Source of the DNA: Microbotryum violaceum
Lineage: Eukaryota
NCBI GenBank assembly: GCA_001244265.2
Contig: CDLV01000014.1
Coordinates: 1,240,001 to 1,304,000 of the forward strand
Length of the DNA: 64,000 bases
Direction: 5' to 3'
A program made the position numbers and the translations under genes. Below are positions 11,694-38,598 of this stretch, one piece after another. The first letter of the stretch is position 1. Each line of letters opens with the position of its first letter. A model generated the notes under the pieces. The model had not been told where the DNA came from. It saw only the letters and a program-made list of their open reading frames with translations, and did no database searches.

Positions 11694-12456
11694 TGTTGAG
11701 TGGATGCCAAAGAGGTTTCGGACTTGGGATGTAGCGACCGCTGAGGCTACTGGTGGGCGTCGACGTGGCTGTTGTGTGCGATGTCGGCGGTGGGGAGAAG
11801 TCGTGAGGCGGCACAAGCGCGGTCTGACGAGACGGGCGCAGTGCGGCTGAACAATCTGTTCTCTACCAGAGATTAGCAGTCTGGCTCATATTGGGAAGCG
11901 GTAGAGAAGAGGAAGAAAGGCATAAGGAGGCACGGGATGGACACAGTTCTATCAGGCAGGCGCGCAGGTGAATTATAGCAAGCTGGCCAATCACATTGCG
12001 AAGCACATAAGGCCAAACTCTTAGTGGGCCATCGAGGCTGAGAGGTGTTGTGTTGGACAATGAACACGGGGAGAGGACTTATCCACAAGGTCTGGTATTG
12101 TTGGAGGTGGCAATCTGTTACGGTGACTTCCAGGTGTTAGGCAACGTACTTCATGGAGGGGCAATGTTTTGTATTGCCGGTGGTCCATGAGGTCGGAGGC
12201 GGCAACTAGCTGTGGCAAGGTGGAGGCCTTGGCTCGGCAACGTGTGAGAGGCGCGGATATGACTAAGTCCCGGTGTGGAGGGAGCGGCATGCGTGCGTGA
12301 GTTGAACAGGAGGGTGCAGGAGTAATGGAAGGGGACGGCTTGGCAGAGACGAGGGGGCGGCTTATGAAAGGCGCCGGAGGCGAGAAAAGCGCCGAGGCGA
12401 AAAAGGGCGCCCGAGGTTGAAGTGTTCAAAGGCTTGTAGTAGAACGAAATTTGACA
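11694..12456 (-). repeat. LTR-A copy (763 bp, short form), unmatched flanks
   Basis: TG..CA ends; homologous to 21101-21831 in inverted orientation; flanks GTCCA/GGGGT differ, so it joins Copia I to LINE-a. Confidence 0.88.
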
Positions 12457-15400
12457 GGGGTGAAGCGGAGAATCAACTTGAACCAAACTTCCCTCTCCCT
12501 TGCCGTCAGTGCCTTCGAGTTGACCGCCTTCCAGAAGCTCCTGAGGTCGTCCGGCTGCGGTGGTCCCTTGAGCCCGAGCGTGTTGGTAAAGGCCTTTGCG
12601 TTCAGGACCCGGCGGATGCGACAGATGGTGTACGGTCAAGCCATGTTCAGCAGCTTGTACTGGCTTGCCTGTTGTGGAAGCACCGGGTCCGGAAAGCGCT
12701 GCTCCATTGCGAAGCGGGCCACGGGCTTGGGGATAATCGCCTCAAGCGGTGCGCTGGTGCCGATCCGGGGAGGCACGTTGAGCCGTCCCGCCGCCACCGC
12801 CACCGCCAAGGGCGTGTTCTTGTGTCGATCGACAGTGAACCGGTACCAGGCCGCGATTGCCAGTCGCTGCGGGAGCCCGCGTCAATTGTACTTGCTGTTG
12901 TTGCCGAGCACATCCGCAGGCGGTGTCCAAAGGTGAAACCTCCCACCCGCATACAACTCGCGCCGATAGAGATCCGCCACCTTTGGGTAGCCCTGGAGAC
13001 GAAGGTAGTCAGGTATATGAACCGCGTCGATGGTCTGTCTCCCTCTGATGGGGGTGTGGAGGCTGCCGAGCAAGGTGGGAAGCGCGAGCAGGTTTGTGGT
13101 GGTCAAGGTCCTCGGGTTGACCTGCGCGTCTTGCTGTTTCGGAAACCCCAGTGCTGCTCGCCATCGGGGATGGAGGTCGCTGGGGATGGGAGTGGATGGA
13201 TGTGGCCAGAGATCGGTGGCCAGGTCGAGGTCGGGCTGAGCTTGCTGGAGTGCCGCGCACGCAAGTCCTTGCCAGATCGCGCCCGAACCGCCAAGAAGAA
13301 TGTCCCCAATTTGTGCCGCAACCGCGTCCATGACGTCCTGCATCCTGATCACCCCAATCCCCCCCTTGAGCTTGGCTGTGAACACAATATCTCTGCCATA
13401 GCTGGTCCTGCCCTTGCCCCCACAAACGAAATTGACGAGCATGTCATTGAGCTTCTTGACGACTTCGGGTGGCGGGATGTTGGCTGCAAGGAAGTGCAGG
13501 ATCTTGGGGATGGCGTACTGATTGACGTAAAAGGCGCGAGTGTGGTGCGTGAGCCAGCGATGCTGAACCACCTCTAGCGTCGCCTCGAGGCGTTTGATGA
13601 GATTGGCGTAGGCAAGTTCGGCGTTGCCACTCGGGTCGAAGGGGAGGCCGATCCACTCGAGCAACTCGCCTGCGGCCTTGACAACAAGCGGGCGTTCCCC
13701 CGAGTCCCAGCGGCGTCCGATCGGTAGGACGACCGTCTTGTCCGTGTTGAGCCGGCCATTCATTGCATGCCTCCAGTCGAGCGCCAGGTCATTGAGCAAG
13801 TTGAGTGACTCCAAGCCCGCGACGGCAACAACAATGTCATTGGCGAAAGCAAGTGATGTAATGGCGCGGCTCTGTGGATACGGATGAAGTGCAGGTATGG
13901 AGAGATTCAGCGCAATATTTTGACGATGTAGAGCATCCAGGAACGGCTGGAATACGATGTCCCAGACCGACGACGACGCCGGGTCCCCTTGGCCGAGCCC
14001 ACATGTCAGTCGCACCGGCACCGTCAGGAACCCATTGATGATGTAGCGGGTCAAGGTCAAGTCACCCGAGTAGAGTATCCTCAGCACGCAAAGAAAGGTG
14101 GCAGGAGCGCCCAGAGTGTCAAAGATGGCAAAGATCCAGTCATGCTCGACAAGGTCGTAGGTGGACAATTGGTCAAGAGACAAGAGCGCTGCCGCGGGGA
14201 ACTTGGTCCTGCGTGCGCCAAGTTCCTCGATCAGGAGACGAAGGTGTAGTGCAGCGTCAGCCAATTGGCGGCCCTTGACAAATCCGTGCTGTTGTGGCGG
14301 GAGGAGATTGGGTAGAATCTGGTTCAAACGGGCAACATAGACCTTGGTAGAGATCTTGTAACTGCACTCGCGCAGGGTGATTGGCCGGTACAACAAAAGT
14401 TGGGCATGATCAGCATTCTTCTTGTGTCACTTGAAGATGAGGTGCATGAGTCCTTGGCCCTGCTTGGGAGAGAGTGAGTGAGCCTTGCTCTATCATCGCA
14501 TTGTAGGCCTTGGTCAGCACCTTGGCCCACGCCTTGGGTGCGGTCTGGTAGAGTTTGCAGGGCTCGCCCAACGGTCCCAGCAATTGCCCCGGGTGCGTTG
14601 TCCCAATCGCGGCCACAACCTCGTCCTCAGTGATTGGTCGCTGGAGTAAGTCGATCTGCGATTCCGAGAGTCGGCGCAGAAAGAGAGGATCCGAGCGCGG
14701 GTCGTCGCAAGTCCGCGCTGCCCTGATCGGCGTAAGGAATTTGTCCCAAAGTTGGCCAATGTGGTTTGAGTCACGAGGCTTGATGTGGTAGACGGAAATA
14801 CGCCTGCGTGTGGTCAAGAACAACATCAATGTCATGCATTAGCTCTCCGTTGCTCAAGCGCAGTGCTGTGATCTTGGAGTCCGAGTTCCGGACTGCGAGC
14901 TTGGCGTGGACCGGCCGCAACAGTCGTTCCTTGGAGGCAATCTTGGGGACGTGGGCTCGGATCTGGAGTAGGCGCACGCGTTCCTCAACCGCCCACTTGA
15001 GTTCCCCGGACGTCCTTGTCCATTCTGCCGTTTCCGCCTTCCCCCATTCCGGTATTGCCTCCAGATCCTGCATCCTCCCCACCAAATACTCCATCCATTC
15101 CGTCCGCTCCCAATGCAGCCTCCTCGCCATCTCCCCACCCCTATCCCTGCACGCCTTCAGAATGACCTTGAGCTCCTCCACCAGTTCCTCCCCGCTTGCC
15201 CCTTCCAACCATCCTTCCATCATCCGCTGGAATTCCACCGTCTTAAAGGTTGTGGTGTTGATTCGATGTGGTAGGTAGGCAGAGCTGTGGGAGGGTCGCA
15301 TCAGGATCGTCTGAGAGAGCCAGCACAATCAAGACCGGTCGGTGATTGGAAAGCTCCTTGGGATAGTTGTAGATTGTTGAGGCCTGGTCAAGTCTTCTTT

Positions 15401-16040
15401 GGTGTGTTTGTTGCAGGAGAAAGTAGTCAAGCAGGGAGAAGGAGTTGGGTCGCTTGCGATTGGGATTAGGTCGAGTGAAAGATGGGGTGATGGGGTGTTT
15501 GTAGCGGATGCAGTCCGTGTAGGCGGAGTCGAGCTTGCCGATCAGGATTGGCCAGTGATGGCTGCGCCGACTTTGGTTCCGCCGATCGACTTCTGGGCGC
15601 GGGCAGTCGTTGAGATCACCGCCAAGGAGTCGGAGGTGGGATTTCTGTGTTTTGTGAGATAAGAGTTTGTCAAAGAATTTCGCTCGTTGCTTTGGGTCAA
15701 TGGGCGTGTAAACATTGTTGATCTCTAGAATTTTGATGCCGCCCTGCAGACAAAAGGACATGACAAGGAGCTGGCCGTTGAGTGCCGAGTGGGTGCGCAA
15801 GAGCTCGGTGTTGATCAGGGGGGAGTCAGCCGGAATTAGAGTCAGACAATGTTGGTTGATGAAGAGCTTGCCCTCGTACTCGTCCTTGAGGAGTTGCCAG
15901 AGGTGGGGTCTGATGAAGTGCTCTTGTATGAGAATGGCCAATACTTTGAAAAGGGATAGGTAGTTGTAAATGTCACATTGTTTCTCCGGGACCCCCATGC
16001 CCCTCCTCACGTTCCAGGTGATGATGGTGTGCTTAATCAT
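12457..16040 (-). pseudogene. LINE-a ORF2: apurinic-type endonuclease plus reverse transcriptase, disrupted
   Basis: ITWNVR, LIQEH, GGDLND, LDYF, SNHRPV (endonuclease); [30 protein letters not shown] (RT). Confidence 0.92.
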
Positions 16041-18201
16041 TAATGGGTAGTTGAGGTCAAAGCGCTCTTGGTAGTGGTGACGTCCTCAAAGAGGGGGAGG
16101 GCGGGCAGGACATTGTCCTCGGGCTCATGGTCGGACCATCTTTTCTCCTCGGCTACCCCCTTTGCTTTCCCTCGGTCCACTTTCGTCACGCCAACTGGCA
16201 TCGCCGCCACCGCTGACATCGACCTCGTCACCCTCCGCCCCTCTGTTCCATCCTTGACAACAACGCGGCTCTTCCCTTTGATGATCACTCGCTTGGCGTC
16301 GGTCGGTTCGTCACTCGGGTCACTGAGGTCCGCCGCATTCTGTGACCTCTTCATTACCGGCTTCTTGAACTTCGCAGCGGTCCCCCTGATATTGATGGAA
16401 CGTATCTCACCGTCCTCATCCCACGTGGCAAAGTTGTGATGCACCAAAGGGGTTTCAGCGTCGAGCCTCCTCTCGATGCTTTGGTCCCGCTCAAGCCGTG
16501 CCTGCTCAACCCAGTTAGCTCTGATCCTGTCCCACTCCTCCCCCTCGCGTAGCGACTTGGTGAGAGTTTCGGGTGACAAAGGTGGGTTTGGCTCGCGGGG
16601 TGTCGATTCGCGGGAAGCGATCGCGGCAGTTGCTGTTGCGTCACTGTCGTTGTCATTGTCCAGCCTGTTTGTCTCCCCTAAGTCCGTCGCTTCCGCGTTC
16701 TCCGCTTTTGTCACTCCCCCTGCCTTGTCCACATTGTCCACCTCCGTCGCCACCTCCTCTTCCTCCATCTCCGTCGCCACCTTGCCTTCTGTTTCGCCCC
16801 TTCCATCCGCCATCACCTCATCCTCATCAATCACCTCTCCATCAGATCCTCCGCGGTCCTCTAAAACCGACTCGTCCTCGCTCTCAAGTTTGATGACCTC
16901 GGTTTTTGCGGTTGCCTCCGATTCCTCCGAGTCCTGGTCATCTGCCTTATCACCAGCGTCCTCCTCCCCCGATTCCTCTGGCCCCTGTCCGCTCTGGCCA
17001 GTTACCGCTTCCTCCTGTCCCTCCTCAACCTCGAGCCCGGCGAAACAATTCTGTGATGCAATCCTGTTAACAACCGGCACAGGAATGGGTGCCTTGGCCT
17101 CCACAATGTTGGTGTTGGTGTTGCCATTGCCGTTCTGAGTCTCCTTTCACTTGCTCTCCTGATCCAGTCCGCAGGTTCCCACGTGACCAACGAAGTGGCA
17201 CCTACCGCAAGCTGCCTCCTTCTCCTAGTCATGGCGAAGGGTGGTGACCGGGATGCCTCAAGTGGGAAGGCCGATTCTCAAAGGTAGGATCTCTTTCAAG
17301 GTTGTGTTAGGGCGTTTGAACAGGGAGTTGTCATCAAAGTGTAGGAAAGCTGAGTAGTCTCCGGCAATGTGGGCAAAGGCCGAGGCATTGTCCACGCTGA
17401 TAATGCGCAGAACCTGCGCAAGTTGGCACAAATGTCCCTTGCCTGACAAGTCCTGCACTAGTGATTGGAACGATTTGATGATGGCGTCCATGGAAGGCAC
17501 TCCTTGAACACCGACATTGATTTGAAGCTCAACCATGTTATGGTGGAACCTGTGAAGTTTCGCAAAGCGGGCCTTTGCCGATTGCCAAGTGAGAGCAGGG
17601 GGCATCGTAAGCGCAGCATCACGTGCCTCGCCGGTGACAAACCCAACCGTAACGCAATGGTGAGCTGCCCCATTACGCAGGATTGATGAATGTTGTACAC
17701 CTAGGATCTGTGGTGGATAGGCTGCAAGGTGGTCCGGGAGAGGAACTCCAGGCTCAAAGCAGATAGGAGAGATCAGCAATAACAGCCTCGTGACACAGGC
17801 CACGAGATCGGTCTTGTTGGCATGAGACGCTCGCGAGGCGCCCTGGTGAGACAGAGTCACTTCAAGGGCGTAACCAAAGATGTTCTCAACAGACCGGTTT
17901 GCGCTCAAGGCCAAGAATTTCAGCGATGTGGCGGTGGCGACGAGGTAGAGTTTGGCAAAGTAGATGGCCTGGACCCAATGATCCATTTGGTTTCCGGGTA
18001 CAGCACCCATGGCTTGTAGGAGGCTGCCCAGAGCCTTGGAACGCTGTTGTTGTTATTGCTGTTGTTCAGGTGACTGAGTTGCCATCTGACTCGCAGCGGC
18101 GGTGGGGGGGGGCGTGGCTTGCGTCTTCTTCGAGCTTATTGGGATCTGGTTGCGGGGTGGCTGAACGCCGGTGGTGGGGACTCAGGGTCTCCTGTAGACA
18201 T
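16040..18201 (-). pseudogene. LINE-a ORF1 (nucleic-acid-binding-like, long acidic linker), disrupted
   Basis: Homologous to LINE-c ORF1; CGRCHFVGHVGTC knuckle-like motif near 17170-17210; stop overlaps the ORF2 ATG (TAATG). Confidence 0.8.
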
Positions 18202-18280
18202 CTTGTCGGTGTATCACTTGTTAACTCGAATATCAAAGACTGCGGTAGGGAGCGAAGATACTCGAAAACGAGGCAAGAGC

Positions 18281-20187
18281 GCCTAGAGAAAGAAGGGGGA
18301 GAATATACAGAAAGTCACAACTGGGATCACGGAGAACCAAGAATACTAAGACAGAGAGGAGGGAAACACACCCAAGGGACCAAGGGAGGGGGTCAAAGCT
18401 GGAGATAAAGGTCCCCAGGGACTAACAGGCCGCAGCCAAGCCCCAGCTACTCGTCACCCCGACAGCGCCTGATGTCCTCCTTTGGCTGAATCTTGAGTGC
18501 TGGCTGTTGAGCCATTGGGGCCGAGCAAAAAGCAATCCAATACAACAAAACGAGCCTCGCCTTGACGCGAGGATATTGACCAAAAAATGAGCAACCTTCC
18601 TTCCCGAGCCATGCGTAGAACACAAACAAACGAACCATTTGACAGAATCCGACACACGGCTTAGGAGTAGAGGGAGAAGTGGCTGAAGCGTAGTCAACAA
18701 CTGAGCAACAGGAAAGAGAAGAGGAAGGGAAGGGGAAAGGAGAGGGGAAAACTTCACAAAAGCCTCCAACGCAAAGACAATTGCACTGGCTTGCCAATCC
18801 ATCCAAGAACAAAAACCGCTACTGCGCAAAGTAGAGAGAGGGAGAGAGGGAGGTGCGCAGCCTTCCACTGCACAACAAGTTTCAAGACAGTCAGCTTCTG
18901 AAAGAGAAGTTGACCTCCGAAAAAGAAGGAAGGACTTAACTTGGTCATCACACCTCCCAATCTCAAGCCCCAGGCACAAAACCCGCTCGAGAGAGAACAT
19001 CTTGCTCGAACGGTCTGAGTGCACTGGGGAGCAAGGGAGGGGCCACGTCCTTGTCCAGCTCGAACCACTGATGAATGCGCCAGCAGAGCAAGTGCAGCCT
19101 CTGGAAGCCAATCACGCAAGCCAGCCAAACCCACATCCATTTTGAGGTCATTCTCCCACAACCCCGCAAAAGGGGGAGCCCCATAGTCAGCTGCTCCGGA
19201 GTGAACGTCAACGGATCGACATCGGTATCCTCAATGCTGAGCTTGTCAAACAGAATGCGAAGCACCCCGCCCCAGAAGCTGGTCGAGTACGCGCACTCGA
19301 AAAAGTAGTGCGAGACCGTCTCGATGACCGCTGCATCGTTGCCGCAGAACAGACACATCGGCGAAGAGGCATGACCCTGAGTATGCTGCCTCTTGCGCGT
19401 CGGCGTCACGTCGTACACGAGCCGCCAGTGGGTGTCCTGCTCCACAGCAGACACGAACCGGTCATGAAGCCATCTCCAGAAGCGCTTCCTATTGCTCTGA
19501 GAAGTCCCATCAGGGAAACGCTTGACACGATCCTCCCTCCCTGGGAACCGAACCATGTTCACAAGCTGACAAAGCTTGCGAATAGTGAACGGTCAGGTGA
19601 GCCCAAAGAAGTTGAAGCACCGAGGACGGGGAGCCTCCTTGAGAGGTATCCAAGCAGGTCGCAACACGGTCTTGGGCGGCAAGGCTTTCGCCTTGAGCAA
19701 CTGACCCACGCGCAACCACATGTGCTCGTGCTGTAGGGCGGGTTCCTTAGAGTGCTGCCAGAACCCGCGTCGATGACCAACCAGAGCCCAGCCCTTCCCT
19801 TTGTCCCTCCAGTACAGGTCCGCGATCTGCCAAACTTCGCCACTGCGTCCGCATTGTCATACGCGTACTTGACATCTTCGGCATAGAGTGAAGGGAGGCG
19901 AGGCGGAAGCGAGAGCAATTTGGGGAGCGTAAGGAGTTCAGACTTGATGGTTGGTAAGGTGACCCTGGCCACTGCAACGACTGCCCCCCAGCGCGTTGAG
20001 TCGTGATACAGCTTCTCGAGCCGAGCCGTGCCGCTGAAGAATCCCCACGGACTGAAATCGCGGGTCGCAGCAACAAGGGACCTACAGCTCTTGCGAGCTA
20101 GGGGCGCCCAGATTGCCTTGTTTGAGCCCACCACAGCATCCCAAAATTGAAGCGCCACCAAATGAACGATGTTGCCAATTGAAATCA
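18281..20187 (-). mobile_element. LINE-b: 5'-truncated LINE of a related but different family (ORF2 C-terminus 18963-20188 plus probable 3' UTR)
   Basis: ALQFWDAVVGSNKAIW aligns with [16 protein letters not shown] of LINE-c; FW..TPTR..CLFC..ETVSHYFFEC C-terminal zinc finger. Boundary with LINE-a approximate. Confidence 0.82.
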
Positions 20188-20880
20188 AAGTTCCCCAAGT
20201 TTGCCGCTGGGTTTGACATTACCTAACAATTCGCTGGTTGCAAGCATCATTGGTGCTATGGCGTAGTCGTGAGGCGCTCAAGCGCACACTCAAGAGGTTG
20301 AGGGTTTGACCCGCCCGGAGTATGATTGGCTTTTTGGTTTGTTATCCTTTTTGTTAACCGAGGCCTGGCTTCGGGGGGCTTTTTTTTATTGGTGCCTCAC
20401 GGCAATCCTTTTTACCCCTGAAGCAACCTCGTGGTGTAGTTATTTGACTGAGTCCCTTTTTGCCTGGAGCACTCACCTCCCTTTGCTTTTGCCACCCTTC
20501 CCCCAGAGCTTGGTCCACTCATCATCATCACTTGTAGCCTCACTCTTTTTATCCATTTCGCTGGCAATTAAGTCTGTTAGACTCGATTTGCTGCGAGCCT
20601 TCCGATCGAATACACTCCTTGGTTGCTCTTGGTTGACTGCCGCCTCCCAGCCAACTTGACCTCCCCACCGGCCTGGTCAGCTGTTCCTCTGGATTGCTTC
20701 CCTCCCTTTTTCGGTTCGATCTCGTTGGCCACCATAGTCCGTTGTACTGGACTTGCTGCGAGCCCTGCAACCGCGTGTCCTCTGCGGTTGCCTCTCGGTC
20801 GACTGCCGCCGACCCAGCCAACGCTCCTCTCTCGCTCTCTCGTGTGTAGGCATTGTCATCTCCTCCGACGATGCCTGTCA
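20188..20880. repeat. LTR-B copy lacking its first ~40 bp (replaced by LINE-b)
   Basis: Homologous to 22296-23819; ends GCCTGTCA. Confidence 0.85.
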
Positions 20881-21100
20881 GTGAGAACGGAGGCCTGGAT
20901 ATGTCAGATGGGGTGTCAAAGCCATTGTTGGACATGTCAATTGTTGCATTGTTGCTGTCGTTGGTCTCGAGCGCGGCAAATCGGTTCTGGTGTACGACAG
21001 GTGGGGTGAATGGTCATGGTGTAGCTTGCAAGGCGTGTGCAGCGTTAACAAAGGTCCAGTCACCAGTGGTGGGTGGCACGTGGGCCAATCAGGGCATCTC

Positions 21101-21831
21101 TGTCGAATTTCATTCTACTACAAGCCTTCAAACACTTCAACCTTGGGCACCTTCTGTAAGCCGCCCCCTTGTCCTCGCTGCCAAGCCGTCCCCTTCCATT
21201 ACTCCTGCACCCTCCTGTTCAACTCACGCACGCGTGCCGCTCCCTCCACACCGGGACTTAGTCATATCCGCGCCTCTCACACGTTGCCGAGCCAAGGCCT
21301 CCACCTTGCCACAGCTAGTTGCCGCCTCCGACCTCATGGACCACCGGCAATACAAAACATTGGCCCTCCATGAAATACGTTGCCTAACACCTGGAAGTCA
21401 CCGTAACAGATTGCCACCTCCAACAATACCAGACCTTGTGGACAAGTCCTCTCCCCGTGTTCGTTGTCCAACACAACACCTCTCAGCCTCAATGGCCCAC
21501 TAAGAGTTCGGCCTTATGTGCTTTGCAATGTGATTGGCCAGCTTGCTATAATTCACCTGCGCGCCTGCCTGATAGAACTGTGTCCATCCTGTGCCTCCTT
21601 ATGCCTTTCTTCCTCTTCTCTACCGCTCCCCATTATAAGCCAGACTGCTAATCTTTGGTAGAGAACAGATTGTTCAGCCGCACTGCACCCGTCTTGACAG
21701 ACCGTGCTTGTGCCGCCTCACGACTTCTCCCCACGGCCGACGATGCACACAGCAGCTACATTGACGCCCCACCAGTAGCCTCAGCGGTCGCTACATCCCA
21801 AGTCCGAAACTTCTTTGGCATCCACTCAACA
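21101..21831 (+). repeat. LTR-A copy (short form), unmatched flanks
   Basis: TGTCGA..TCAACA; flanks ATCTC/GATTT; right flank is Copia C gag. Confidence 0.88.
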
Positions 21832-22240
21832 GATTTCAGTGTTGAATAAATCTTGGGCGCGGTGAGTTCACCGGTGGGAATTTTGTCGAGGACTGCCAAG
21901 ACTTCGGCTGAGTCAATCAAGTTTGCAAGGATCTCGCAAGCCACAACGTCGCGGGCGGAGCGTTGCAAAGGTGTCCAGTTGGCGGGCACGATGCCGTTGA
22001 GGATGTACAAGCGGATGTCATCCGCTAGGCAAAGGCAAAGTTGGCTCCTTTGCACCATCCAAGTGTGCATGCTTTGGAAAGGCAGTACAAGTGGTGCCGG
22101 ATGTTGTGGCAGGTGCAGCAATGCCGGAAGCGGCAGCGACGTAAGTGCGGCAAGCTGTTCGGCGGGAATTGTTGGGTTGGCACCCGTCACAAGGGGTAGT
22201 GTTGTGGACATGCCAGCTGGTGGCTCGTGGGCTTGTAACC
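21832..22240 (-). pseudogene. gag: Copia C family PBS plus gag N-terminal fragment
   Basis: [31 protein letters not shown] matches the 54882 ORF; PBS-like GGTTACAAGCCC at 22229-22240 (minus). Confidence 0.9.
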
Positions 22241-22295
22241 TATGAGACGATCACCACTACTGTCAGGATAGGTTGAGAGGCAAACAGAAGTGATG

Positions 22296-23819
<1,524 letters not shown>

Positions 23820-24786
23820 CGATGAGAAGGAAGCTAAGAAACGGAAGAAGGGACCCGCGCTGGGATAGGCCCAGGCGCGGGTGAAATTACTGGCGCGCTG
23901 AGGCACTTGCGCGCATCTAAGTTGTTGAGTGGATGCCAAAGAGGTTTTGGACTTGGGATGTAGCGACCGCTGAGGCTACTGGTGGGGCGTCAATGTAGCT
24001 GCTGTGTGCGATGTCGGCGGTGGGAGAAGTCGTGAGGCGGCACAAGCACGGTCTGTCGAGACGGGTGCAGTGCGGCTGAACAATCTGTTCTCTACCAAAG
24101 ATTAGCAGTCTGGCTTATAATGGGGAGCGGTAGAGAAGAGGAAGAAAGGCATAAGGAGGCACAGGATGGACACAGTTCTATCAGGCAGGCGCGCAGGTGA
24201 ATTATAGCAAGCTGGCCAATCACATTGCAAAGCACATAAGGCCAAACTCTTAGTGGGCCATTGAGGCTGAGAGGTGTCGTGTTGGACAATGAAAATGAAG
24301 GGAAGACTTATCCACGACGTCTGGTATTGTTGGAGGTGGCATGACAGGCATTGTCGGAAGGGATGATGATGCCTACACGCAAGAGAGCAAGAGAGGAGCG
24401 TCGGCTGGGGCAGCGGCAGTTGACCGAGAGGCAACCGCGGAGGATACGCGGTTGCAGGGCTTGCAGCAAGTCCAGTACAACGGACTAAGGTGGCCAACGG
24501 GAGGGAAGCAATCCAGAGAAACAGCTGACCAGGCCCGTGGGGAGGTCAAGTCAGCTGGGAGGCGGCAGTCGACCGAGAGCGACCAAGGAGTGGATTCAGT
24601 CGGAAGGCTTGCAGCAAATCAAGTGTAATGGACTTCATTGCCAGCGAAATGGATAAAAAGAGTGAGGGTACGAGTGATGATGATGAGTGGACCAAGCTCT
24701 GGGGGAAGGGTGGCAAAAGCAAAGGGAGGTGAGTGCTCCAGGCAAAAAGGGACTCAGTCAAATAACTACACCACAAGGTTGCTTCA

Positions 24787-30002
<5,216 letters not shown>

Positions 30003-30318
30003 CTACAATGACTATGACTTCTGATCCACCATAGGCTCACCTGGACACTCGTGTTAGTCGCTGAGGGGAGACTAAGAGTGTCCAGGCGCGTGCGCCCTTC
30101 TCATAAGGCCCAGGCGCATGGGCCTTACATTGACCTCTTGAGTGCGCGCCCGCGTGCCTCACAACTACGCCATAGCGCCAACAATGCTTGCAACCAGCAA
30201 ACCTTTAGGTGAACTCAACCCCAGCGGTGAACTTGGAGACTTCACTTTCACTTTCGAAGCCAAAATCGCCCCACGCCACACCTTCGGTTACGCCAACAAG
30301 TGATACACAGAGAGATCC

Positions 30319-32499
30319 ATGCAGACCGGCAATCCCAGCTCGGCCCCTGGGGCCAGAGCCCCACCACCGCCGGCGTCCGCGCCAACAAGCCTCCCAATTG
30401 CGGGGACAAAGGAGACACAAGCCACCCAGGTTGCTGGCCAAACCGCAACCTACGCCGCCGCTACCAACTCTTCAGTGGTCTTGAATGAGGCTCCTGCTCA
30501 GCAACAAGATTGACTTGCATGTCTACAGGCTTTGCCCGGCATTTTGGTGGCAATTCAGGCCGTTCCCGGAAACCGAGCGGACTGTTTTGTTGAGGCCATC
30601 TTTGCGACCCCTGACTTCCCATCCACGGTTGCTACTGCACTCAAGCTCTCAGCTCTCAACGCCACAAGGAACAAAATCAACCCGTTCGCCAACGCGCTTG
30701 AGGTGAGCCTGTCTCACAAAAGCACAGGGAGGGCATCTGCGACCGACAAAGGGGAGCTTGTTGCGTGTGTACGCACCCTGCTCTCGCCCAACACACCAAT
30801 CTGCTTTGACACCGGAGTCCCGCTTTCTGGTGATCTTGAAGCTTTCATGCCTTGAATCACCGGTCTCCAACACTCATCAACTTTCCGCACCGGGGTCCTG
30901 CACCATTGCATCACAGTCGGATTCGTCTCAGCCGAGGCCCGTGACGCCGCCCTTGCGTCCGCCCCCATGCTTGTCTGGAACTCGGCCAACGCGCGCTTTG
31001 CCAAGGCCCACCCCTTCCACCGCAACATGCTCAAGATGCGCATCAATGTTGGTGTGGTCAGACCCCCTTCCAAGGAACAGATTGTCGCGGCGTTCCAGTC
31101 CATCGTTCAACAGCTCTCCACCAAAGGTCACATGTGCCAACTTGTGCAGGTTTTGCGCGTCATTCACGTCAACACCGCCAAGGCCCACACCGTTGGTGAC
31201 TTCTTGGTGTTCATCCACTTCAATGACACCTCTTTGTTCCAGCACCCAACTACTATGCTCAAGGAGATTCTCCCTTCAAGGATGGACTTGCCCACCCGCG
31301 GCCTTGATGTGACCGCCATCCAACACAACTACAAAAAGGAGGCACCGTGTGCGCGCTGCCCCTTTGCAGGTCACGTGGAGAGGTGCCCCCTGATGCAGGC
31401 CGCAAATAGAAAGGAGGCGGAGGACCTGGCCAGGCATGCGGTGATGAGAGGCGCCGGAATGGTGGGGGGAGGAGAGCAGACAGGAGTGGGTCGAGCGGCC
31501 ACCACCAACAACAACAACACCTCCGAGGTGGTGGCCCTAGCCGCGCCCTTGGAACCGACCAACTCAAATTGCGGAACCAATTTGCGGGGCTCGAGGTTGA
31601 AGGAGGACAGGAGGATGCAGGAAAAGGCGCAGGTCGAAGAAAGAAACGAGGATATGGGCGCCAAGGCGGACGACAAGGATTTGGACTTGGATGGGAACGC
31701 CAGAGCGGGCATCGACAAGGCGGGAGGCAACAACAAGGACAAACAGGACAACAGCTCGGAGAGAAGCGAACAAAGGGGGGATGACGTGATGAAAGATGGA
31801 GCAGAGGAAGACGAAGGGATGGAGACAGAGGTGGAAGAAGAGGTCAAACAGGAACAGGGGGTACAGGACAACAGCATCATGATCATCAACAACGGCCAAA
31901 CAACAATCACCACAGTTTCCCGCAAGTTGACTCCTTGGAGTCCCTCATGGCCTCCACTATCTCCGGAGACGTTGGCAAAGTTGCTGCGTGAGGGTGCAGA
32001 ATGGGACCAAGCTAACGCCAAAGCTGCTGCACATGTCCAAGCAGAAAAGGAGGCAAACATCAGCGCCCAACTTGACACGGAGGAACTGCTCGTTTGCCAA
32101 CAATTTGCAGAGTGGGGTCAGGAAGATGGACAACTGCAATTCATCAACATTTGTGGCACCGGCTCCCGGTTGAACAAGAAGATGAAGAGGTCGCAAACGG
32201 TGGCCGATCTCAGCAATCCGAGCGACAACCCGGTCAATGTCAAGCGCATTCTGAACAGGGTCAAAGGTCGAGTAGGAAAGGAGGTAGCGGATCAGGGGAA
32301 GAGGGCGACGAGGTCGATGTCGGCGGCGGCGGCAATGCAGGTCAAGGGGGCCAAGACAAAAGCGGAGAAGGGTAAGGGGGTGGAGGAAGAGAAGTGCTGG
32401 TCCGACCACGAGCCCAAGGATGACATTCTTCCCAAATTCCCACTCTTTGAGGACGACACTACCGCCAAGAGCACGTCTACATCGTCTACCCAATCATGA
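30319..32499 (+). pseudogene. LINE-c ORF1, disrupted
   Basis: [13 protein letters not shown] knuckle-like motif, acidic linker, [16 protein letters not shown]-terminus shared with LINE-a; in-frame TGA stops. Confidence 0.82.
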
Positions 32500-35400
32500 T
32501 CAATCACCTCATCACCAGCTGGAACATGAGGAGGTGCATGGGGATCCCGGAAAAGCGACGCAACATTTACACCTATTTATCAACATTCAAAGCAACCACC
32601 ACCATTCTACTACAAGAACACTTCATCAAACCGGAACTCTGGCAATGTATCAAGGACGAGTACGAGGGCAAGGCCTTCATCAGCAAACACTGTCTGACTT
32701 TGATCCCCGCCGACTTGCCCCTGATCAACGCCAAGATTTTGCGCACCCACTCGGCACTCGACGGACAAATCCTGGTCACCTCTTTTTGATTTTGAGGCAA
32801 CATCCAGATACTTGAGATCAACAACATTCACGCACCAGATGATACAAAACAACGACTCACATTCTTTGACAAACTACATTTCCACAGGATGCAGAGCACC
32901 CACCTTCAACTCCTCGGCGGCAATCTCAATGACTGCCCGCTGCTGGCAATTGATTGGCAGAACCAAGGTTGGCACGGCCATCACTGGCCAATCCTGATCG
33001 GCAAGCTCAACTCACCCTACACCAACTGCATACAATTCAAACACCCACTCACACCATCTTTCACCAGACCCAACATTGTCCACAAGCAGCCAAAGTCCTT
33101 TTCACAACTTGACTATTTCCTTCTGCAGCGCACCCACCAAAATCAACTTGTCCAAGCCTTGACAATCTATGACCACCCCAAGGACCTTTTGGATCACCGG
33201 CCAGTCTCAATTGTCCTGGTTCTCTCGGGCGAGCAAGGAGACGCGGCTCAAACCAATTACATTGTGTCAACGTGGCGACCTTCAAGACGGCGGAGTTCCA
33301 GGGGATGTTGGAAGGATGGTTGGAAGGAGCGAGTAGGGAGGAACCGGTGGGGGAGCTTGAGGTGGTGCTGGAGAACTGCAAGAAGGAGGGTCGGGAGCTG
33401 GCGAGGAGGGAGCATTGTGAGTGGGTGGAGCGGATGGCGGTCTTGGTGGGAAGGGTGCAGGATCTGGAGGCCTTGTCGGTGATGGGGGACAAGGAGACGG
33501 CCAAATGGATGCGGACAATGGAGGAATTTAGGCGAGCGGTCAATGAGCGTGCGCGCCAACTTCGGATCCGAGCCCACGTACCCAAAATCGCTACCAAGGA
33601 ACAACTGTCGCGGCCGGTCCACGCCAAGCTTGCGGCACAGAGTTCGGATTCCAAGATTGCAGCACTGTGATTGCCCAACGGGGAGCTGACACATGACATT
33701 GATGTTGTGCTTGACCACACACAGCCACACTTTCAGCGCCTCTACAATCTTGAGCCGCGCAATTGGGACCACGTTGAGCAACTTAGGGACAATTTATTGG
33801 CGCCAATCAGGTTGGCGCGCACTTGCGACGACCCAAGCTCGGACCCGCTCTTTCTGCGACAACTCTCAGAAGCGCACATTGAGCTGTTGCAGCAACCCAT
33901 CGCCAAGGACGAGGTTGTAGCCACAATTGCAACAACGCACCCCGGTCGATCGCCGGGCCCATCTGACGTGCCCTACAAGCTCTATCACACAGCGCCGCGG
34001 GCGTGGGCCAAGGCGCTGAGCAGGGCTTTCAACGCAATGACCGAGCACGGCTTGCTTTCACCAAAGCAGGGGCAAGGACTTGTTCATCTGCTCTTCAAGC
34101 ACCACAAGATCGGGGCCGATCGCGCCGAGCTCTCGTCGTACCGGCCCATCACCTTGCGCGAGTGCGACTACAGGCTCTTCACCAAGGTCTACGTTGCGCG
34201 ACTCAACCACGTGCTGCCGGACCTGCTCCCACCGCAACAACACGGCTTCGTCAAGGGCCGCCGATCGGCAGACACCTCTTTCCACCTGCGACTCTTGATC
34301 GAGGAGCTGGGCGCGCGCGGCACCGAGTTCCCTGACGCGGCGCTCTTGTCTTTAGACCAATCGTCGGCTTACGACCTCGTCGAGCACGAATGGATCTTTG
34401 CCATCTTCAACGCTCTTGGCGCTCCTGCCGCCTTCCAACGCGTTCTGAGGATGCTCTACTCGGGTAACTCAACCACGGCGCGAAATATCATCAACGGCTT
34501 CTTGACTCCGCCGGTGCAGCTGACGTGTGGGCTTGGCCAAGGGGACCCAGCGTCGTTGTCGGTCTGGGATGTCGTATTCCAGCCGTTCCTGGATGCTCTG
34601 CACCGTCGAGGCATCGCGCTGAACCTTTTGCTTCCTACCATTCACCCCTACCCACAGAGCCGCGCCATTACATCTCTTGCATTTGCCGATGATGTCGTCG
34701 TCGCCGTTGCGGGCTCGGAGTCACTCACCTTGCTCAACAACCTGGTGCTCAACTGGAGGCTCGCAACCAATGGCCGGCTCAACACCGACAAGACTGTTGT
34801 ACTACCCATCGGGTGTTGCTGGGAGGCTGGCAATCGTCCGCTCATCGTCAAAGCTGCAGGCGAGTCGCTCAAGTGGATCGGCCTATCTTTTGACCCCACC
34901 GGCAACACCGAACTTGCCAACGTGAATCTCGTCCCACGGCTCGAAGCAGTGCTTGATTTGGCACGGGACCGGGGGCTCACACACCACACCTGGACGTTCT
35001 CAACCGATACACCTTTCCCAAGATTCTGCACATCCTCTCCGCCGACATCCCACCGCTTGAGGTCGTCAAGGAGCTTGATGGCATTCTCATCGACTTTGTC
35101 CGCGGCGGCAAGAGAAGGTCGTGCTATGGCAAGGATGTTGTCTTCACACCGAGGTTCAAGGGGGGTCATGGGGTCGTGTGGATGCAGGACGTTGTTGACT
35201 CGGTTGCGGCACGCGTCTGGGATGTGCTTCTTGGTGGTTCGGATGTGATCTGGCAAGGACTTGCGCGCGCGGCAATTGTACGAGCCTATCCCGCCCCTGA
35301 CTTTGACTTGGCAACTGATGCGTGGCCTTGCGACTACACTCCGACCCGAACCAATCTACACCCAAGATGGCAGGCTGTGCTGAAGGTACCATCGACGCAC

Positions 35401-36471
35401 AATGCGCAAGTCAAGCCAAGGATGTTGAAACTCGCAAATCTTCTTGCTCTTCCGATCAAGTTGCACACCCTTCACTACCTACCGGGAGCACCAGCTGTGT
35501 CGCAACAACCCTACGACGCCAACTATGCTGCGTTTGCCATTTACGCCAAGGTAGCGGACCTGTTCCAACGCAAGCTGTACCTGGGTGGGGGCTTTCATCT
35601 CTGGATGCCGCCAACGGATGTGGTCGTCAGCAACAGCAAATATGATCAACGGGGCCACCCACAACAAGAGCACATTGTGGCATGGTACCGACATGCGATC
35701 AATCGATTAAGGTTCACACCAATAGCTCAACCGGTGGCAGCAGTATGAATCAACGGGCCTCCCCGAGTCCGCCCCACCACGCTGCTCAAGTCGATCCTGA
35801 CCCATCCAATTGACCCGCCACAGCGCCTTCCGAGACCGGCTCTCCCAGACCAATCAACGCAATACAACTTGCTCAGCATGGATTGGCCATACACCATCCG
35901 TCACGTCCGCCGAGTCTTGAATGCAAAGGCCTCCACCAACACAATTGGTTTCAGGGACTCGCTGCAGCCCGGCAATATCAAGGGATTCTGGAAAGGGGTC
36001 AACTCGAAGGCATTGACGGCGAGGGAACACAAGGTGTGGTTCAAGCTCATCAGAAACTTCACCCCGACTCGGAGTCTGCAGTTTCATCAAAAGCACAACG
36101 ACTTGCCCGTGTGCCTTGTCTGTGGAGTGCCCAAGGACAATTGGGAGCACTACTTCTTTGACTGCATTGACTCTGGGAATGTTTGGATTGTGGCAAGGAG
36201 CGTGCTCTGCAATGCACTGGGGCTCGACACGATCGACAACGCGCATTACATGGCTGTTCAACGCATGTTTGGACTTCCAAAGCTCAAGGCCAGTCTGCGC
36301 AATCAAGAAGGAGCGGGGAGGACAATCAAAATATTCACCGGGCTGGTCTTGGAGATGATCAGCAGCGGGAGGTGGGGGATGCAGAAGTGGGGGACGATGA
36401 TAGGGTGTTGTGAAGAGGAGGATCATCTTGGAGGAGAGGTTGAAGCTGAGGGCGGGAGGAGAGGGCAGTAG
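32496..36471 (+). pseudogene. LINE-c ORF2: endonuclease, RT and C-terminal zinc finger, disrupted
   Basis: ITSWNMR, LLQEH, GGNLND, LDHRPV; SPGPSD, YRPITL, GQGDP, FADD; CLVC..EHYFFDC. Confidence 0.93.
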
Positions 36472-37315
36472 AGGCTGGGTTTGACTTTCCCCCCACCACC
36501 ACACACACACACCAAATTCTTGTGACATCATTTTCTCCTACTGTACACTAAATAGATTGCTTTCATTTTTCATTTGTTACAGGTTCACCGTTGCGGATCA
36601 TGGACCATCTCACAATTTGGCGTTGACTTGGTGTGGCTTGCGCTCTTTGGCTTTGGGGTTCTGAGTCAAGGGAGGGATCAGCGGACACAGGCAGAAAGTC
36701 GGCTTTGAGGGGCCAGGGACGGCCAATGGGGGAGGTTTTGAGGGACCTTCACCGCGTCTTGTTGTGACTGAGCAGAGACTTGGAGCGTCGAGGGTTGTGG
36801 TGGTTGCGCAGTCGTGCTCTTGTTTTTGTCTCGACCAAGTGGGAAGTGGCTGTGGGGTGGGCCTTCTGTCGTTAGTACATTTATATTCTTTCTTTTTCTC
36901 TTCATCTCTCTTTCTCTCTCTCATTAGTCTCCTGGGGGGGAGCAACCGCTTGGCTAGGGCATTTGAATCCAAATCTTGGATTGGTGGACTTGGCTTGTTT
37001 CTTGCACTTTTGCGGGTGGTTTGTGTTATCATTGTAGTCTTCCATCAAGTTTTTCCGTAGGCCAAAACAGGGGGAACAGGAACTGGGAGCAATATGATGA
37101 ACATTTTCTACAAAAACAAAATCCTTCGAGTACTGCTGTCAGGACACGCTGTTATCCTTACATGGCAATCCGTTACGGTGAGTTTCAGGTGGTAGGCAAT
37201 GTACTTCATGGAGGGGCAATGTTCTGTATTGCCTGTGGTCCATGAGGTCGGAGGCGGCAACTGGCTGTGGTGAGGTGGAGGCCTTGGTTCAGCAATGTGT
37301 GAGAGGCGCGGATAT

Positions 37316-37464
37316 TATTTGATCAACTCTACTACGTCAGCGATGTAGTTCTAGCCAAGAGTGATGAATAGGAAGCTAACAGTGTGAGAGCCGCACGCCC
37401 CAAGTTTCCCAGGCACGCTCCGCGCGCCTAAGTCCTGAGCCAAGCGGAGAGTGGATTCCTCACA
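37316..37464 (-). repeat. solo LTR-F (149 bp, TG..TA)
   Basis: TSD GATAT (37311-37315, 37465-37469); matches 45224-45412 minus one 40-bp repeat unit. Confidence 0.9.
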
Positions 37465-38286
37465 GATATGACTTAGTCCCGGCGTGGAGGGAGTGTTGCG
37501 CGCACATGAGTTGAACAGGCGGGCACAGTGGGGCCGCAAGAGTAAGGGGGCGGCTTGGCAGCGAGGACAAGGGGGCAGCTTGGCAGAGACGAGGGGGTGG
37601 CTTAGCTGCAAAGACAAGGGGGCAGCTTACGAAAGGCGCCCAAGGTTGAAGTGTTCAAAGGCTTGTAGTAGAATGAAATTTGACATAAGTCCCCACCGCA
37701 GGTGGGCGGGCTAGCGGGTGCGCGCACAAATCCACCGGCGCAGGCGCGCTGAGTCAGTCGCGCGCCCGCTAGCCCGCCCCCTGCGCTGGGGACTTAGACG
37801 CGCGCGACTGACTCAGCGCGCCAGCACCGGGTGGATCCGTGCACGTGCCCGCTAGGCCGCCCCCCTGCAGTGGGGACTTAGACGCGCGCAACTGTCTTAG
37901 TGCACTAGCAATTTCACCCGCGACTGGGCCTATCTCAGCGCGGGCCTCCTGTCTGTTCTTAGCTTCCTCCTCTCACTTCTGTTCGACTATCAATCCCTCC
38001 TGACAGTAGTGGTGATCATCTTATAGGTTTTGAGCCCAACGAGCAACCAACTGCTCCTTGAGGGATTCTTCGAGCCCAACCACTGGCACCGCACACGTCC
38101 CTCGCAGCATGGACAGCCCTCCTGCCGCACCCTTGCTGCCCAGGGATTCCAGCTCCCCTGAGCCCTCATTCAGCGCGCAAATCGCCACTCTCCAGGCGCA
38201 ACTCGCCGCTCTGCAGGCCTCGCAGCCCCTAGCCGCTGCCGCTCCCACGCCCCGGCCGTTGCAGCCACACCGGTCCACACCACCAC

Positions 38287-38598
38287 TATGAGACGATCAC
38301 CACTACTGTCAGGAGAGGTTGATTGTCAAACAGAAGTGGTGAGAGGGAAGCTAAGAAACAGAAAGGGGTCCGCACTGGGATAGGCCCAGCCGCAGGTGAA
38401 CTTGCTAGGGCGCTGAGGCAGCTGCGCGCGTCTAAGTCGCCACCTCAAGGGGGCGGCCTAGCGGGCGCGCGCCCAAGTCCGCTGGCGCCTGCTCGCTGAG
38501 GCAGTCGCGCGCGCCTAAGTCCCCACCGCAAGGGGCGGGCTAGCGGGTGCGCGCAACGACCGAGGCGCCTCTGTCAAGCTGAGAGTGGACTCTTTACA
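38287..38598 (-). repeat. solo LTR-C (312 bp, short form, TG..TA)
   Basis: TSD ACCAC (38282-38286, 38599-38603) fixes the terminus as ..TCTCATA. Confidence 0.9.

Follow-up and report, generated by a model that had tools for sequence, protein, structure and literature searches.

How do two different long interspersed nuclear elements (LINEs) come to lie on the same base of the same long terminal repeat (LTR) family? The question is raised by a 64,000-nucleotide stretch of the fungus Microbotryum violaceum (assembly GCA_001244265.2, contig CDLV01000014.1, positions 1,240,001 to 1,304,000 of the forward strand; hereafter the window), a transposon graveyard with 56% G+C. In this window a solo LTR family, LTR-B, is present in three copies, two of which are occupied at one bond and in one orientation by two LINE families, LINE-b and LINE-c. 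The original prediction for this stretch had read the pair as possible site-specific, LTR-targeting LINEs. Based on the junctions, we favour an explanation to which we give about half of our confidence, namely that two abundant, related and distinct LINE families with an apurinic/apyrimidinic endonuclease (APE-type) inserted independently at one preferred nick site in LTR-B.

Self-comparison and three-way alignment delimit LTR-B as a solo LTR of about 735 bp with a 5-bp duplication, which starts with TGTAAGGAT and ends with CCTGTCA. Its parts in the window, and the retrotransposon nested in the third copy, are as follows.

20188 to 20880, plus strand: LTR-B copy 1, without its first 40 or so bases; begins AAGT and ends CCTGTCA at 20880.
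22298 to 23819, plus strand: LTR-B copy 2, unoccupied at G^AAGT (22335/22336), with a nested E1-like LTR at about 22884-23687.
37122 to 37162, minus strand: LTR-B copy 3, first 40 or so bases (3' flank of LINE-c); 94.7% identity to 22298-22335, with all 38 bases aligned.
30130 to 30242, minus strand: LTR-B copy 3, bases 41 to 150 approximately (5' flank of LINE-c); 85% identity to 22335-22446.
24342 to 24902, minus strand: remainder of LTR-B copy 3 to CCTGTCA, then TGCCA; 87-93% identity to copies 1 and 2.
24903 to 30129, minus strand: LTR retrotransposon nested in LTR-B copy 3; terminal repeats 24903-25001 and 29906-30004 are 97% identical; long minus-strand open reading frames (ORFs).

All three marks of a solo LTR, TG..CA termini, a short target duplication and an empty site, are found in LTR-B. 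Copy 3 has TGCCA on either side, the flanks of copy 2 read (T/C)GATG with four of five bases matching, and contigs from three of four sequencing runs (X1, X3 and X13) skip 22292-23820 and so represent the empty site of copy 2. Copies 1 and 2 share 90% identity (20192-20745 vs 22339-22883), and a search of the window for the first 40 bases missing from copy 1 did not find them. The copies are independent, since their right flanks differ and copy 3 carries its own TGCCA duplication.

The two LINEs that adjoin LTR-B are the following.

30243 to 37121, plus strand: LINE-c, full-length and decayed, with an ORF1 region, an APE region, a reverse transcriptase (RT), a zinc-binding C-terminus and a 650-nucleotide 3' untranslated region (UTR).
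18248 to 20187, minus strand: LINE-b, 5'-truncated, comprising the C-terminal part of ORF2 and the 3' UTR; a member of an abundant Microbotryum family (zf-RVT, E = 6.8e-7).

In LTR-B copy 2 the empty site reads CTCGAAGG^AAGTCTCC (22328-22343). LINE-c interrupts copy 3, which is inverted, some 40 bases from the LTR start, such that LTR-B ends ...GGAGACTT at 30242 and LINE-c runs from 30243 to the tail ...ACAAAAACAAAA at 37121, after which LTR-B resumes as TCCTTCGAG... from 37122. Compared with copy 2, a single A/T is repeated at the two ends of LINE-c, which amounts to a 1-nucleotide target duplication. At copy 1, LTR-B homology begins with AAGT at base 20188, directly after LINE-b. The 5' junctions of both LINEs lie on one bond, G^AAGT, and both elements are antisense to the LTR. 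A 418-nucleotide single-copy short-read contig spans the LINE-b/LTR-B junction (20043-20460) with 0 differences, and a 945-nucleotide X13 contig aligns from 30241, where the 12 letters beyond the LINE-c 5' end are unaligned and too few for the flank to be compared. No contig ends at 20187, 30242 or 37121 were present among the 24 of 933 loose ends and 32 of 7555 pieces listed. At the two 5' junctions the first LINE bases resemble each other (7 of 11, 9 of 17), a likeness that we set aside as chance because LINE-b is truncated within ORF2.

These base-level junctions and the three-copy alignment bear out the original prediction in its description of the locus: the empty site, the splitting of LTR-B by LINE-c, the position of LINE-b at the equivalent AAGT, and the occupation of two of the three LTR-B copies in the same relative orientation. 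The LINE beside copy 1 had been taken for a single element; a truncated LINE-b does abut LTR-B there, but the stretch also holds a second element, LINE-a, at 12457-18247.

On protein comparison, LINE-b and LINE-c are related families that share one architecture and are clearly different, in agreement with the claim of two different LINEs. The RT of LINE-c is 46% identical over 438 residues to P0009, a relative of LINE-b, while LINE-b and LINE-c compared directly show only 33-36% amino acid identity, in the zinc-finger region. LINE-b itself matches residues 1491-1610 of P0009 (1902 amino acids) with 84% identity over 120 amino acids, starting from the first codon past the junction. Because this match begins at about residue 1491 of 1902, LINE-b is a 5'-truncated copy. 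P0009 and its kin carry Exo_endo_phos, RVT_1 and zf-RVT domains (Exo_endo_phos at 7.6e-6 in the LINE-b relative P0012), and no RNase H family was detected at E<=0.01 in P0009, P0012 or P0019. LINE-c, whose coding sequence is broken across several frames, has an RT recognised by RVT_1 (2.6e-20) and a zf-RVT match of 2.4e-4, under the Pfam cut-off; the best solved relatives of its RT are human L1 ORF2p (1.3e-18) and then R2 (1e-14). Its region 32604-33233 is 66% identical to the endonuclease region of LINE-a by tblastx, with a broken ORF and no Pfam match.

The arrangement of an endonuclease N-terminal to a non-LTR RT, with a zinc-binding C-terminus and no RNase H, is that of APE-type, L1-like LINEs, and the further hallmarks of this group are present as well: an A-rich 3' end, the absence of terminal repeats, a target-site duplication and 5' truncation. 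The closest relatives among the protein matches are in M. silenes-dioicae, M. saponariae and M. intermedium, and only one match, distant at 26% identity (E 5e-13), bears a Tx1 name. The protein collection contains no relatives of a 92-amino-acid ORF that spans the 3' junction of LINE-c, and the last 23 bases of LINE-c matched one unrelated, bacterial-looking contig among metagenomes, which we regard as a chance match. A search of the window for additional LINE copies found none beyond LINE-a, LINE-b and LINE-c.

LINE-a provides a third insertion event in the window.

12457 to 18247, minus strand: LINE-a, related to LINE-c and almost complete at its 5' end (Exo_endo_phos, 2e-6); its insertion site is the LINE-b 3' UTR.

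It shares 72% nucleotide identity with LINE-c over 3919 bases, and the two are colinear by tblastx (18120-12450 vs 30440-36072). Judged by these alignments, LINE-a and LINE-c are one family and LINE-b is the other. At 18248, the loose ends listed include six contigs in X18 and five in X1 whose consensus runs on as LINE-b with an agreement of 0.96-0.99; therefore, LINE-a interrupts the LINE-b 3' UTR and is not placed after its end. LINE-a is in turn interrupted in its zinc-finger region by a solo LTR of a second family, E1, whose TGTC... stands at 12456 directly after ...CTTCACCCC. The missing 3' part of LINE-a was searched for in the window and not found.

Could the shared base be an accident? 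Two unrelated insertions on homologous bases, in a transposon-dense and probably non-recombining region, are an explanation that we consider unlikely, albeit worth serious weighing. Given that both LINEs are in LTR-B, the same base and orientation would be hit with P = 1/(2x735) = 6.8e-4. For M. lychnidis-dioicae, the part of PMC4469406 consulted gives 392 LINE copies (Table 2) and 14% transposable element (TE) space. With these values, uniform insertion in TE space yields 0.03-0.3 same-site, same-orientation LINE pairs per genome, and since very many windows were screened, some chance cases will have been flagged. For LTR-B alone, however, only 2e-5 such pairs are expected, and of its roughly three copies two are hit at the same bond. 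In addition, an 8-mer of the site recurs at the third LINE event in the window. Pure chance is thus an unlikely source of the shared site.

This 8-mer, TTCGAGTA when read on the LINE-sense strand, lies at 37125..37132 (plus strand), 3 bases after the LINE-c 3' end, and at 22326-22333 (minus strand) in the empty site. A further occurrence, at 18259-18266 (minus strand), falls within the LINE-b 3' UTR and precedes the LINE-a 5' junction by 11-19 bases, which is the expected place if the LINE-a duplication is about 21 nucleotides. TTCGAGTA adjoins all three LINE events, of which one is an independent comparison. The window holds five occurrences against 1.4 expected, and under a null of random 40-mers an 8-mer in common with the target is seen in 3.5% and a 9-mer, the length shared with copy 2, in 1.1%. 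The 9-mer, TTCGAGTAT, is also found at 49735 and 62905, a few bases past the end of a copia-type LTR in a stretch that resembles a primer-binding site; it is therefore over-represented in the transposon sequence here. Given this weak evidence, we treat the putative motif as a lead and not as a result.

The favoured explanation, independent insertion at a shared nick site, takes the junctions, the different families, the orientation and the 1-nucleotide duplication of LINE-c as observed, and derives its nicking and priming steps from the junctions and the model of target-primed reverse transcription. The endonuclease would nick the LTR-sense strand at ...TACTCGAAGGA^AGT, and the resulting 3'-OH would prime complementary DNA synthesis on the A-rich LINE tail. 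A cut of the second strand 0-1 nucleotides away could then leave both 5' junctions on the same bond. The preference would be for a short sequence or a local DNA shape and not for LTR-B as such, so that LTR-B may be a bystander in a transposon graveyard that is not purged of insertions. The same group of LINEs would also stack head-to-tail in its own 3' regions. Among 126 gene models, 8 combine a b-type with a c-type part, both running the same way, and their truncation points differ (residues 865, 1172, 1196, 1219, 1233, 1538 and 1707 in the frame of P0009). To judge from the gene models, LINE-b and LINE-c commonly form head-to-tail stacks in the genus Microbotryum. The fused b-/c-type models are P0002/P0003, P0037, P0039, P0046, P0047, P0057 and P0060.

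Several points weigh against a shared nick site. The window offers three events, two of them on one target, and the motif amounts to one independent case with a post hoc p of about 0.01-0.04. The duplication required is 1 nucleotide for LINE-c and about 21 nucleotides for LINE-a, whose 3' junction falls outside the window; the LINE-b 3' junction is likewise missing from the window. The part of LINE-b in the window is without an endonuclease to compare, and the flanks compared are those in the window. Furthermore, the depth values given below are summed over contigs and serve as a rough proxy, good to an order of magnitude and not a copy number.

A more far-reaching form of the nick-site explanation is that LINE-b and LINE-a/c constitute a fungal guild of L1-like LINEs whose endonucleases specifically nick the LINE-sense strand at the 5' edge of TYYTTCGAGTA; we consider this possible, though doubtful. 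The matching proposal, that such a guild homes into any repeat with TYYTTCGAGTA (LTR-B, the LINE-b 3' UTR) and thereby builds head-to-tail stacks, is to us equally tentative. A literature search that was not aimed narrowly at this question found no sequence-specific group of APE LINEs in fungi.

It is very unlikely that one ancestral event, a rearrangement (inversion, gene conversion) or a misassembly underlies both junctions. Such an origin would be in keeping with the loss of the far flanks of LINE-b and LINE-a, and with the E1 family, solo LTRs of about 730-760 bp that read TGTCGAATTT...CCACTCAACA and of which two inverted, 94.75% alike copies bracket 12457-21100 without matching duplications.

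11694 to 12456, minus strand: E1 solo LTR (TGTC...CTCAACA), inverted twin of 21070-21831 (11694-12375 vs 21831-21146, 94.75% identity).
21101 to 21831, plus strand: E1 solo LTR separated from LTR-B copy 1 by a 220-bp spacer (20881-21100).

Matching target duplications were looked for at the flanks of the E1 twins and none were found, and the arrangement may be an inversion with duplicated ends. However, the junction partners come from different families and from different parts (ORF2 from about residue 1491 for LINE-b, a full 5' end for LINE-c), and a rearrangement is unable to join a different part of a different LINE family to the same LTR base. Because the LINE families differ, common descent of the junctions is unlikely. 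Copy 3 moreover retains both LTR halves and a clean 1-nucleotide duplication, and the single-copy contig that crosses the LINE-b junction without differences argues against misassembly.

Are these LINEs then specialists of LTR-B? A LINE lineage specialised on this LTR, as Tx1L is on Tx1D, would account for two of three copies being occupied at one base, in one orientation and by two families, but its abundance leaves such a lineage highly improbable. In X18, single-copy contigs have a depth of 210-243, the bins of LINE-b reach 49,127-57,608, and the depth of LINE-c rises from 5' to 3', from 990-1,651 in the 5' bins to 75,638 in the last full bin. Bins with LTR-B but no LINE lie at 459-1,231, and X1 agrees; the bin 22599-23255, at 459 or about twice single copy, has the yield of the three window copies alone. 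LINE-b and the 3' end of LINE-c are thus at about 200-300 times single copy vs 2-5 times for LTR-B, a mismatch of about 100-fold. The gene models give the same impression: 51 of the 126 contain LINE-b-type and 53 LINE-c-type segments, they are spread over many contigs and chromosomes in three related species, and in several of them LINE parts are fused to copia-type domains (PF00665, PF07727), which indicates other neighbours.

The LINE families are therefore far too abundant to live only on LTR-B, and LINE-a sits in a LINE and not in LTR-B. Of the marks of a site-specific LINE, the use of one base and one orientation in independent target copies is found, a recognition sequence common to independent targets has TTCGAGTA as its candidate, and depth and the position of LINE-a indicate that most copies of the family are not in the target. 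The site-specific reading of the original prediction consequently holds in part. Two independent insertions at the same base and in the same orientation remain and, being made by two families, point to some target preference, but a lineage parasitising LTR-B is not supported, given the 100-fold difference in depth, LINE-a in the LINE-b 3' UTR and the dozens of gene models per family.

Position-directed targeting upstream of an RNA polymerase III (Pol III)-type promoter in LTR-B, suggested by A-box-like and B-box-like strings and T runs seen by eye from about 61 bases downstream of the site and facing the LINE 5' ends, and by the LTRs with tRNA-derived parts (Helenus) that the consulted portion of PMC10886601 describes in rust fungi, is highly improbable in our view, as ARAGORN predicts 0 tRNAs in the window, the three LTR-B copies or a transition-corrected consensus, Rfam has no hit in the window and no tRNA match on LTR-B copies 1 and 2 even at E<=10, and the same portion of PMC10886601 reports that Helenus was not found in Microbotryum. 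A tRNA-like element in LTR-B was accordingly rejected. The strings themselves, TGGCGTAGTC (A-box-like) and GGTTTGATCC (B-box-like), are separated by about 44 bases, precede T runs and are visible by eye at 22397-22470 in copy 2 and at 20250-20330 in copy 1.

The neighbourhood of these insertions is itself heavily nested. Pieces of E1 are present at 21101-21831, 11694-12456, 22884-23687 (E1-like), and 37163-37685 plus 23923-24341; E1 and LTR-B are mutually nested, with LTR-B copy 3 in E1 and an E1-like LTR in LTR-B copy 2, and the inverted E1 twins enclose LINE-a, LINE-b, LTR-B copy 1 and the 220-bp spacer. The host of LTR-B copy 2 (21832-22292 plus 23820-23922) is a high-depth repeat that also occurs at 54671-55321 and 37876-38437, and its bin 21942-22598 has a depth of about 31,000 vs about 230 for single copy in X18. 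Beside LINE-c, the E1 part contains an insert of about 149 bp (37316-37464) with 95% identity to 45221-45350, which is a small mobile or variable unit given the several alternative joints at this place in the contigs.

As matters stand, the locus offers two clean junctions and a motif that can be tested, but not a new class of element. A real endonuclease preference behind the shared site would account for the growth of LINE stacks and nested transposon islands in those parts of anther-smut genomes that do not recombine. An L1-like endonuclease would then have a defined nick site containing G+C, of use in studying the evolution of target choice among LINEs. If the site is a mere hot spot or the result of chance, the locus is ordinary transposon-graveyard debris.

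Among known systems, the Tx1 clade is the one on which the specialist idea was modelled. In the section of PMC4494074 consulted, Tx1 is termed an animal clade and its target-preferring LINEs include Tx1L in Tx1D and Keno in U2 genes, as well as the crocodilian Tx1-8_Crp and Tx1-4_AMi in LTR retrotransposons; to the extent covered there, the crocodilian families' preference for LTR retrotransposons is a precedent for LTR targeting. The Microbotryum LINEs resemble this clade in being APE-type and in occurring repeatedly at one position of another repeat. However, most copies of the Tx1 families are in their target, whereas the Microbotryum LINEs outnumber LTR-B about 100-fold.

TRE5-A of Dictyostelium targets tRNA genes. 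LTR-B shows a comparable fixed distance and head-to-head orientation between the LINEs and a downstream A/B-box-like string but, unlike the TRE5-A targets, contains no tRNA or tRNA-derived element according to ARAGORN and Rfam. Zepp/ZeppL and Cnl1 are LINEs that form self-nesting clusters, to which the head-to-tail LINE-b/LINE-c models and the position of LINE-a within the LINE-b 3' UTR are similar, although a fixed nesting position in Microbotryum is seen in one case. The endonuclease of human L1 has a loose preference for TTTT/AA. Unlike this A/T-rich site, TTCGAGTA contains G+C, as a candidate motif and not a measured consensus. For EhLINE1/EhSINE1 of Entamoeba, the part of PMC1635306 consulted describes hot spots that arise from endonuclease sequence preference together with DNA structure in otherwise untargeted elements. 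The Microbotryum LINEs are likewise dispersed and abundant, and as with the Entamoeba LINE and human L1, a preference for a short sequence and its local structure could lead to the same sites being reused.

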